Source: Escherichia coli (GTDB taxonomy: Bacteria; Pseudomonadota; Gammaproteobacteria; Enterobacterales; Enterobacteriaceae). Taken from it: a stretch of DNA of 64,000 bases. The stretch lies in the NCBI RefSeq assembly GCF_002854065.1, contig NZ_CP024147.1; one strand, written 5' to 3'. The first letter of the stretch is position 1, and each line of letters begins with the position of its first letter. Below are positions 6,286 to 15,781 of this stretch, piece after piece. The position numbers and the translations under genes were made by a program. The notes beneath the pieces are model-generated. The model was given only the letters and a program-made list of their open reading frames with translations, made no database searches and was not told the DNA's origin.

Positions 6286-6372
6286 TGGTGCGAGGGGGGG
6301 GACTTGAACCCCCACGTCCGTAAGGACACTAACACCTGAAGCTAGCGCGTCTACCAATTCCGCCACCTTCGC
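6286..6372 (-). tRNA. leuV: tRNA-Leu (CAG)
   Basis: 87 nt; reverse complement matches GCGAAGGTGGCGGAATTGGTAGACGCG...CCCCCCCCTCGCACCA, CCA encoded. Confidence 0.95.
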
Positions 6373-6405
6373 ACAGTCATCTTACTTTTTTGATATCGCC
6401 TCGTT

Positions 6406-6492
6406 TGGTGCGAGGGGGGGGACTTGAACCCCCACGTCCGTAAGAACACTAACACCTGAAGCTAGCGCGTCTACCAATTCCGCCACCTTCGC
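6406..6492 (-). tRNA. leuP: tRNA-Leu (CAG), one-base variant in the variable region
   Basis: 87 nt; same as flanking copies except gtaagAacact vs gtaagGacact. Confidence 0.93.
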
Positions 6493-6520
6493 CCAGTGCG
6501 AGCAATATCAACGTGGTTTT

Positions 6521-6607
6521 TGGTGCGAGGGGGGGGACTTGAACCCCCACGTCCGTAAGGACACTAACACCTGAAGCTAGCGCGTCTACCAATTCCGCCA
6601 CCTTCGC
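6521..6607 (-). tRNA. leuQ: tRNA-Leu (CAG)
   Basis: 87 nt; third tandem copy, spacers about 33 and 28 bp. Confidence 0.95.
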
Positions 6608-6742
6608 ATACCATCAATTCTTAAAAAGAATTGCTACCACGGAGGCGCATTCTAGTGGTTTTCAGCTTTTCGTCAATAGTTAATTATCGCCGGAGGTGTA
6701 ATTGCTGGAAAAATGGCCATCAGCGGATTGTGGATAATTCGT

Positions 6743-12649: not shown

Positions 12650-13723
12650 GTGGGGCAGCGAATACCTGTAACGCTTGGTAATATTGCGCCGTTGTCGCTA
12701 AGGCCGTTCCAGCCTGGACGAATAGCTCTGGTGTGCGAAGGCGGCGGACAGCGTGGAATTTTCACGGCTGGCGTGCTGGATGAGTTTATGCGCGCGCAGT
12801 TTAATCCTTTCGATCTTTATCTCGGCACATCTGCCGGGGCGCAGAACCTCTCGGCGTTTATCTGCAATCAGCCCGGTTACGCGCGCAAAGTCATCATGCG
12901 CTATACCACAAAACGCGAATTTTTCGATCCATTGCGCTTTGTCCGTGGAGGAAATCTTATCGATCTCGACTGGCTGGTGGAGGCCACCGCAAGCCAGATG
13001 CCGTTGCAAATGGATACCGCCGCGCGGTTGTTTGACAGCGGCAAATCGTTTTATATGTGCGCCTGTCGTCAGGATGACTACGCGCCGAATTACTTTTTAC
13101 CAACCAAACAAAACTGGCTGGATGTGATTCGCGCCTCCAGTGCGATACCTGGCTTTTATCGTAGCGGAGTGTCGCTGGAAGGCATTAACTACCTGGATGG
13201 CGGGATCAGTGATGCGATTCCGGTTAAAGAGGCGGCAAGGCAGGGCGCTAAAACGTTGGTCGTCATCCGCACTGTGCCGTCACAAATGTACTACACGCCG
13301 CAGTGGTTCAAACGCATGGAACGCTGGCTGGGTGACAGTAGCCTGCAGCCGCTGGTCAATCTGGTGCAGCATCATGAAACCAGCTATCGTGACATTCAGC
13401 AATTTATTGAGAAACCACCGGGCAAGCTGCGGATATTCGAAATTTATCCGCCGAAGCCATTACATAGTATCGCGCTTGGCAGTCGGGTTCCGGCGCTGCG
13501 TGAAGACTATAAACTTGGGCGTTTATGCGGTCGTTATTTCCTCGCCACGGTTGGCAAGCTATTAACTGAAAAAGCGCCGCTTACCCGCCATCTGGTGCCA
13601 GTGGTGACGCCGGAATCGATCGTTATTCCGCCTGCGCCAGTCGCCAACGATACGCTGGTTGCCGAAGTGAGCGATGCTCCGCAGGCGAACGACCCGACAT
13701 TTAACAATGAGGATCTGGCTTGA
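12650..13723 (+). CDS. yjjU: Patatin-like phospholipase YjjU
   Basis: GGGxRG oxyanion motif CEGGGQRGIF and GTSAG serine motif; GTG start chosen with upstream aggaagg SD (start uncertain). Confidence 0.85.
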   Translation: MGQRIPVTLGNIAPLSLRPFQPGRIALVCEGGGQRGIFTAGVLDEFMRAQFNPFDLYLGTSAGAQNLSAFICNQPGYARKVIMRYTTKREFFDPLRFVRGGNLIDLDWLVEATASQMPLQMDTAARLFDSGKSFYMCACRQDDYAPNYFLPTKQNWLDVIRASSAIPGFYRSGVSLEGINYLDGGISDAIPVKEAARQGAKTLVVIRTVPSQMYYTPQWFKRMERWLGDSSLQPLVNLVQHHETSYRDIQQFIEKPPGKLRIFEIYPPKPLHSIALGSRVPALREDYKLGRLCGRYFLATVGKLLTEKAPLTRHLVPVVTPESIVIPPAPVANDTLVAEVSDAPQANDPTFNNEDLA

Positions 13724-14917: not shown

Positions 14918-15781
14918 TCACAAATACAGCGCCGGAAATATCAACCGGCCCACCCCGCGCACCTTTAATGCATCAGCCAACGGCTCAACGTCTTCCGGCG
15001 TGGCGCTCGCCCAGCTTTGCGCCTCGCCATACACGCCGTGGGCATGAAACGCGTTCAGGCGTACCGGAACATCGCCAAGTCCCTTGATAAACGCCGCCAG
15101 TTCTTCGATGTGTTGCAAATAATCCACCTGGCCAGGGATTACCAGCAAACGCAGTTCCGCCAGCTTGCCGCGCTCTGCCAGCAAACAGATGCTGCGCTTA
15201 ATCTGCTGATTATCGCGTCCGGTTAATTGTTGATGACATTCGCTACCCCATGCTTTGAGATCGAGCATTGCGCCGTCACACACCGGGAGTAATTTTTCCC
15301 AGCCGGTTTCGCTCAACATGCCGTTACTGTCCACCAGACAGGTGAGATGGCGCAGTTGCGGATCGTTTTTGATAGCAGTAAACAGCGCCACTACAAACGG
15401 CAGTTGGGTCGTGGCTTCGCCGCCGCTTACCGTTATCCCTTCAATAAACAGCACCGCTTTGCGGACATGGCTAAGCACTTCGTCCACGCTCATGGATTGC
15501 GCCATCGGCGTGGCATGTTGCGGACACCTCTTCAGGCAGGTATCACACTGCTCGCAGACCGCAGCGTTCCACACCACTTTGCCGTCAACAATCTGCAACG
15601 CCTGATGCGGACACTGTGGCACGCACTCTCCGCAATGATTACAGCGCCCCATCGTCCACGGATTGTGACAGTTTTTGCAGCGCAGATTGCAGCCCTGCAA
15701 AAACAGAGCCAGACGACTGCCTGGCCCGTCAACGCAGGAGAAGGGGATAATCTTACTGACTAAAGCGCATCTGCTGTTCAT
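14918..15781 (-). CDS. yjjW: Glycyl-radical enzyme activating protein (radical SAM) YjjW
   Basis: 287 aa; CxxxCxxC and extra ferredoxin-like Cys clusters; overlaps yjjI. Confidence 0.88.

Follow-up and report, generated by a model that had tools for sequence, protein, structure and literature searches.

The single-base difference of the middle tRNA-Leu(CAG) gene in an Escherichia coli leuQPV array is the normal leuP allele

Gene conversion and unequal crossing-over readily act on identical genes in tandem. The stretch of Escherichia coli DNA analysed here (64,000 nucleotides of contig NZ_CP024147.1, assembly GCF_002854065.1; hereafter, the window) carries three tandem tRNA-Leu(CAG) genes, the middle one of which departs from its neighbours by a single base, and the question that it raises is whether this base is the normal allele of the middle gene or a peculiarity of the strain. 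ARAGORN found exactly three tRNA genes in the window, all tRNA-Leu(CAG) and all on the minus strand, with the transcription order leuQ, leuP, leuV, and the Rfam tRNA model (RF00005) scored each of them at 48.5 bits, against a gathering score of 29. When aligned in the sense orientation, the three genes, each 87 nt long, are identical in 86 of 87 columns. The sole differing column is position 48 in linear tRNA numbering, which is T (U in the RNA) in leuP and C in leuQ and leuV; on the plus strand, leuP has A at 6445, and the outer copies have G, at 6325 and 6560 (gtaagAacac versus gtaagGacac). The preliminary description had reported this A-for-G difference and had taken the array to be leuQPV-like, and both statements are borne out by the gene alignment, by ARAGORN, and by the K-12 annotation. 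The array is flanked in the window by homologues of RsmC and FhuF, and consists of the following features:

6286..6372, minus strand: leuV, transcribed last of the three genes; tRNA-Leu(CAG) with C at linear position 48 (ARAGORN and Rfam; position and sequence as in K-12 leuV, b4368)
6373..6405, minus strand: leuP-leuV spacer, 33 nt, with a T6 run (A6 in the transcript) versus T7 in K-12 (K-12 alignment)
6406..6492, minus strand: leuP, in the middle of the array; tRNA-Leu(CAG) with U at linear position 48 (ARAGORN and Rfam; identical to K-12 leuP, b4369)
6445..6445, minus strand: the variant base, plus-strand A, U at linear tRNA position 48, opposite G55, changing C:G to U•G (gene alignment and cloverleaf pairing)
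6493..6520, minus strand: leuQ-leuP spacer, 28 nt, same as in K-12 (K-12 alignment)
6521..6607, minus strand: leuQ, transcribed first; tRNA-Leu(CAG) of the C form (ARAGORN, Rfam and K-12 comparison)
6649..6676, minus strand: promoter-like site of leuQPV, with a -35 element TTGACG, a 16-nt spacer and a -10 element TAGAAT, followed by the G+C-rich stretch GCGCCTCC (consensus scan, 10 of 12 matches)

The promoter-like site, whose sequence is the same in K-12 and O157 Sakai, is presumably the known promoter of the tRNA-Leu1 operon. The leuQPV operon, which lies between rsmC and yjjZ, would be transcribed from this site (near 6650-6676) on the minus strand. REP-type palindromes are found between the leuQ promoter and rsmC, with REP-like motifs at about 6765, 6817, and 6875, and the segment 6748-6830 matches the Rfam family naRNA4/CssrE (RF02564, 73 bits). 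The length of this region varies by strain: the window has some 44 additional bases compared with K-12, and in O157 Sakai about 110 bases of the region are missing.

The comparison with K-12 leuQPV decides the main question. In K-12 MG1655 (NC_000913.3), the same place is occupied by leuV, leuP, and leuQ (b4368-b4370), between yjjZ and rsmC, and the window leuP matches b4369 at 87 of 87 bases, including the U at linear position 48. Since this U is also present in the K-12 reference gene, the variant represents the reference allele of leuP: the middle gene of the window is the normal, already known leuP of the leuQPV operon and is not strain-specific. The choice between these two options had been left undecided in the preliminary description, and the identity with the reference removes any unusual status from the middle copy. 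The likeness extends to the whole tRNA-Leu1 operon (b4370-b4369-b4368 in K-12), which shares with the window the gene order, the strand, the flanking fhuF, yjjZ, and rsmC genes, all three tRNA sequences, the leuQ-leuP spacer, and the promoter region. Over the 441 nt that were aligned directly, the one difference is the T6 versus T7 run in the leuP-leuV spacer; neither this missing T nor the extra bases of the REP-containing region touches the tRNAs. The run, at 6386-6391 of the window, occurs in both lengths among E. coli genomes. Many E. coli chromosomes, that of strain 042 among them, match a 501-base stretch around the array at 100% identity, and their annotation there shows three tRNA-Leu genes adjoining yjjZ. 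The one-base difference of leuP has already been described for K-12 in the literature, and a tRNA-sequencing preprint enters leuP apart from the identical set leuQ leuT leuV. According to PMC2190699, K-12 leuQPV is transcribed as one unit, which RNase P cuts into mature tRNA-Leu1.

Unconstrained minimum-free-energy folding of the U and C forms of the tRNA returned no cloverleaf, and the folds differed between the two forms. The cloverleaf was written explicitly in linear numbering, and then scored with a nearest-neighbour model. It consists of an acceptor stem (1-7/77-83), a D stem (10-12/24-26), an anticodon stem (28-32/40-44), a variable-arm stem of four base pairs closed by a UUAC loop (46-49/54-57), and a T stem (60-64/72-76). 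Linear position 48 lies opposite G55 in the third of the four variable-arm pairs, which is C:G in leuQ and leuV, and U•G in leuP. The variant had been assigned to the variable region, with the question of whether it sits in a stem left for folding; the explicit cloverleaf places it within the variable-arm stem, with the pair kept as a wobble. Linear position 48 is not Sprinzl position 48, which is the U at linear 59 and is unchanged in leuP; in Sprinzl nomenclature, we take the variant pair to be roughly e12:e22. The predicted cost of the C-to-U change is about 2.9 kcal/mol, both for the full cloverleaf (from -30.0 to -27.1 kcal/mol) and for the isolated variable-arm hairpin (from -3.7 to -0.8 kcal/mol). 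Among 17 distinct tRNA-Leu(CAG) sequences from related arrays, all four variable-arm pairs are always standard and never unpaired, with the 48:55 pair being C:G in 13 and U•G in four, and compensatory double changes are found at 46:57 and 47:56. Because standard pairs are kept throughout and compensatory changes occur in the relatives, the comparison indicates that the variable-arm helix is real. A Dcm (CCWGG) deamination hotspot at the variant was considered as well, and was rejected because the surrounding bases, TGTCCTTAC, do not form one.

The C:G to U•G change keeps the variable-arm helix and leaves every known leucylation element as it was. Two papers on tRNA identity (PMC9976931, PMC2377443) give the leucine identity elements in E. 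coli as the discriminator A73, G18G19, and the tertiary pair between A15 and Sprinzl U48, and published work shows that leucylation by E. coli LeuRS does not hinge on the long variable arm. All three copies in the window carry A before CCA (linear 84), G18G19, A15, and U59 (Sprinzl 48), and their anticodon, acceptor, D and T arms, as well as the D/T-loop contacts, are the same. Since the identity elements are unchanged and the variable arm is not crucial, we infer that leuP is normally charged; it most likely functions fully as an isodecoder and, like its neighbours, reads CUG. The gene supplies one of the four tRNA-Leu(CAG) copies. A literature search on leuP and isodecoders returned no report that gives the U form a function of its own.

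The frequency of the two forms within E. coli was determined with 55-mers that have the variant base in the middle, so that no 28-base seed word can match without it, since the identity bands of BLAST summaries cannot resolve one mismatch in a query of 150-500 nt. The U form was matched in 4852 of 5426 complete E. coli genomes (89%; median, one copy), and the C form in 5425 of 5426 (median, three copies), in a collection that is strongly biased to a few lineages; these figures count genomes and not events on a tree. A few genomes have up to four U-form or seven C-form copies, and the collection also contains plasmid-borne copies, in two places for the U type and six for the C type. The approximately 574 genomes without the U form either carry C-C-C arrays or have only one gene left at the locus, with such collapse being the commoner state. 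C-C-C arrays were confirmed in strain 127, O55:H7 RM12579, and ETEC H10407; spacer type and serotype are not the same in all of these, a sign that conversion may have happened more than once. They are present on both T6 and T7 backgrounds. In O157:H7 Sakai (NC_002695.2), the leuQPV locus consists of a single tRNA-Leu(CAG) gene (locus L005, positions 15567-15653). Collapsed arrays were found in about 441 (scored as lacking an intact middle copy) to 509 (scored by a full-length single-copy junction) of the 5426 genomes, and the gap between the two counts is probably due to the rule by which the search tool joins pieces. O157:H7 genomes have three C-type copies in total, despite the single gene at the leuQPV locus. 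The locus, its flanks, and the C-form sequence in H10407, RM12579, strain 127, and Sakai are as in the window; these homogenised or collapsed lineages lack the U form, whereas the window retains the majority C-U-C state.

To cover other genera, one genome per species was scanned for two adjacent variable-arm 18-mers, with C or T allowed at the variant position so that neither base was favoured. This yielded 101 arrays, in which the copies were read in transcription order and the neighbouring RsmC homologue was checked; the counts that follow are of arrays, with no tree-based estimate of rates. In the Enterobacteriaceae and close allies (51 arrays), the order C-U-C was found in 39 and at least one U copy in 45. 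In the Morganellaceae (Xenorhabdus, Proteus, and Morganella; 17 arrays), one U and one C copy adjoin rsmC in 16, and in arrays of the Halomonadaceae type the U form was found in none of 33. The C-U-C order was seen in Escherichia albertii, Salmonella enterica arizonae, Citrobacter, the Klebsiella oxytoca group, Raoultella, Kosakonia, Phytobacter, Pseudocitrobacter, and Intestinirhabdus, in which the tRNA sequences are otherwise the same as in E. coli. The exceptions are Trabulsiella and a Pluralibacter metagenome-assembled genome (C-C-U), Kosakonia arachidis (U-U-C), and Pluralibacter gergoviae, a Pantoea, and one further strain (C-C-C).

Other Enterobacterales (Salmonella, Citrobacter, Klebsiella, Raoultella, and Kosakonia, as well as Xenorhabdus, Proteus, and Morganella) thus share with the window an rsmC-linked tandem of tRNA-Leu(CAG) genes, with a C/U dimorphism at the same variable-arm position. 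In the Enterobacteriaceae, the U form is usually the middle copy, as in the window. The spacers of all these arrays differ from those of the window, and the Morganellaceae arrays differ further in having two copies (U-C or C-U) and in their acceptor stems. Four Proteus loci (L072, L074, L080, and L105) show paired acceptor-stem changes, G6A with C78T in one copy and G7A with C77T in the other, from which it appears that the Proteus U and C copies evolve independently and are not homogenised. The leuP homologue of Escherichia albertii NBRC 107761 (locus L007, positions 12791-12877) has a second change, C24T, which converts the G12:C24 pair of the D stem to G•U; this copy has thus gained another wobble-preserving transition. 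Because the C/U dimorphism is shared across genera in a search that favoured neither base, the variant is old; the distribution of the two forms dates the dimorphism to before the Enterobacteriaceae radiation, and probably also to before the Enterobacteriaceae-Morganellaceae split. In E. coli, the old leuP allele is now and then erased, by gene conversion (giving C-C-C) or by collapse to one copy.

These data bear on two explanations that would make the middle copy abnormal. Repeated sequences do suffer assembly errors, and a lone deviating base in one of them might be a sequencing or assembly error or a new mutation of the strain. An instance of such an error is probably provided by NZ_CP025268.1, a genome labelled K-12 MG1655, in which the array reads C-C-C and leuV has an extra C in its C8 run (88 nt); this C-C-C state probably reflects a consensus error of long-read assembly, rather than the true sequence of MG1655. 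The same leuP base recurs in the K-12 reference, in 89% of the complete E. coli genomes, and in other genera, so it is a real inherited allele, and an error or strain-specific mutation is ruled out for all practical purposes. It could also be argued that leuP is a decaying, non-functional copy (a pseudo-tRNA), since the only deviation in the array is in this gene, and weakens a stem. Against this, the other 86 positions equal those of the working copies, the gene reaches the same Rfam score as they do (48.5 bits), the altered pair is a standard wobble, and the exact sequence is conserved across genera without further decay; the gene also lies within a co-transcribed operon that is processed by RNase P into mature tRNA-Leu1, according to PMC2190699. 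Decay was rejected on account of the conserved sequence, the retained pairing, and the unchanged Rfam score, and has scarcely more probability left to it than an error. The reading that best accounts for the data is that of an ordinary leuQPV operon with a normal, old leuP allele that is most likely a functional isodecoder, to which we assign a probability of about 0.95; no observation speaks against the identification of the array.

It is less clear whether this normal allele is neutral. The long persistence of a U copy in a conversion-prone tandem array could mean that the two forms of the tRNA are not entirely interchangeable, and the U form might be a functionally distinct isodecoder that is kept by selection, acting on transcript processing, stability, modification, fragments, or recognition by a nuclease or another tRNA-binding protein. 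The C-U-C order adjoins rsmC in at least a dozen genera, though the spacers and the flanking proteins have diverged (RsmC, about 83-92% identity), and one U and one C copy are kept in nearly all of the Morganellaceae arrays. The Proteus copies differ also in the acceptor stem, which points to long separate evolution, and the dimorphism has outlasted far deeper divergences, even though conversion and collapse occur within E. coli. On the other hand, the variable arm makes no difference to LeuRS, the U form is missing from about 10% of E. coli genomes (including the successful O157:H7 and ETEC H10407), a low conversion rate could keep a neutral C/U difference, and the survey of 101 arrays is not a rate estimate on a tree. 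The long survival of a single U copy could reflect weak selection, or just a low rate of conversion. Selective maintenance of a distinct isodecoder is a tentative proposal, and we consider it unlikely, though by no means negligible; the more specific proposal, in which the U•G variant marks a distinct isodecoder that has been selected as one rsmC-linked copy since before the Enterobacteriaceae-Morganellaceae divergence, despite conversion and unequal crossing-over, is somewhat more doubtful still. If selection were at work, leuP would have a role beyond plain CUG decoding, for example in processing, in stability, in the production of fragments, or in escape from, or recognition by, a tRNA-targeting factor.

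The leuP variant is the reference state, and is neither a mutation, nor an error, nor a strain marker. Mapping of tRNA-sequencing reads and counts of tRNA genes should treat leuP as a separate sequence. The copy number and the homogenisation of leuQPV vary among E. coli lineages, such that the dosage of tRNA-Leu(CAG) genes differs: K-12 has four copies, and O157:H7 has two fewer at this locus. That the C-U-C order is conserved at such depth bears on how tandem tRNA genes escape concerted evolution.
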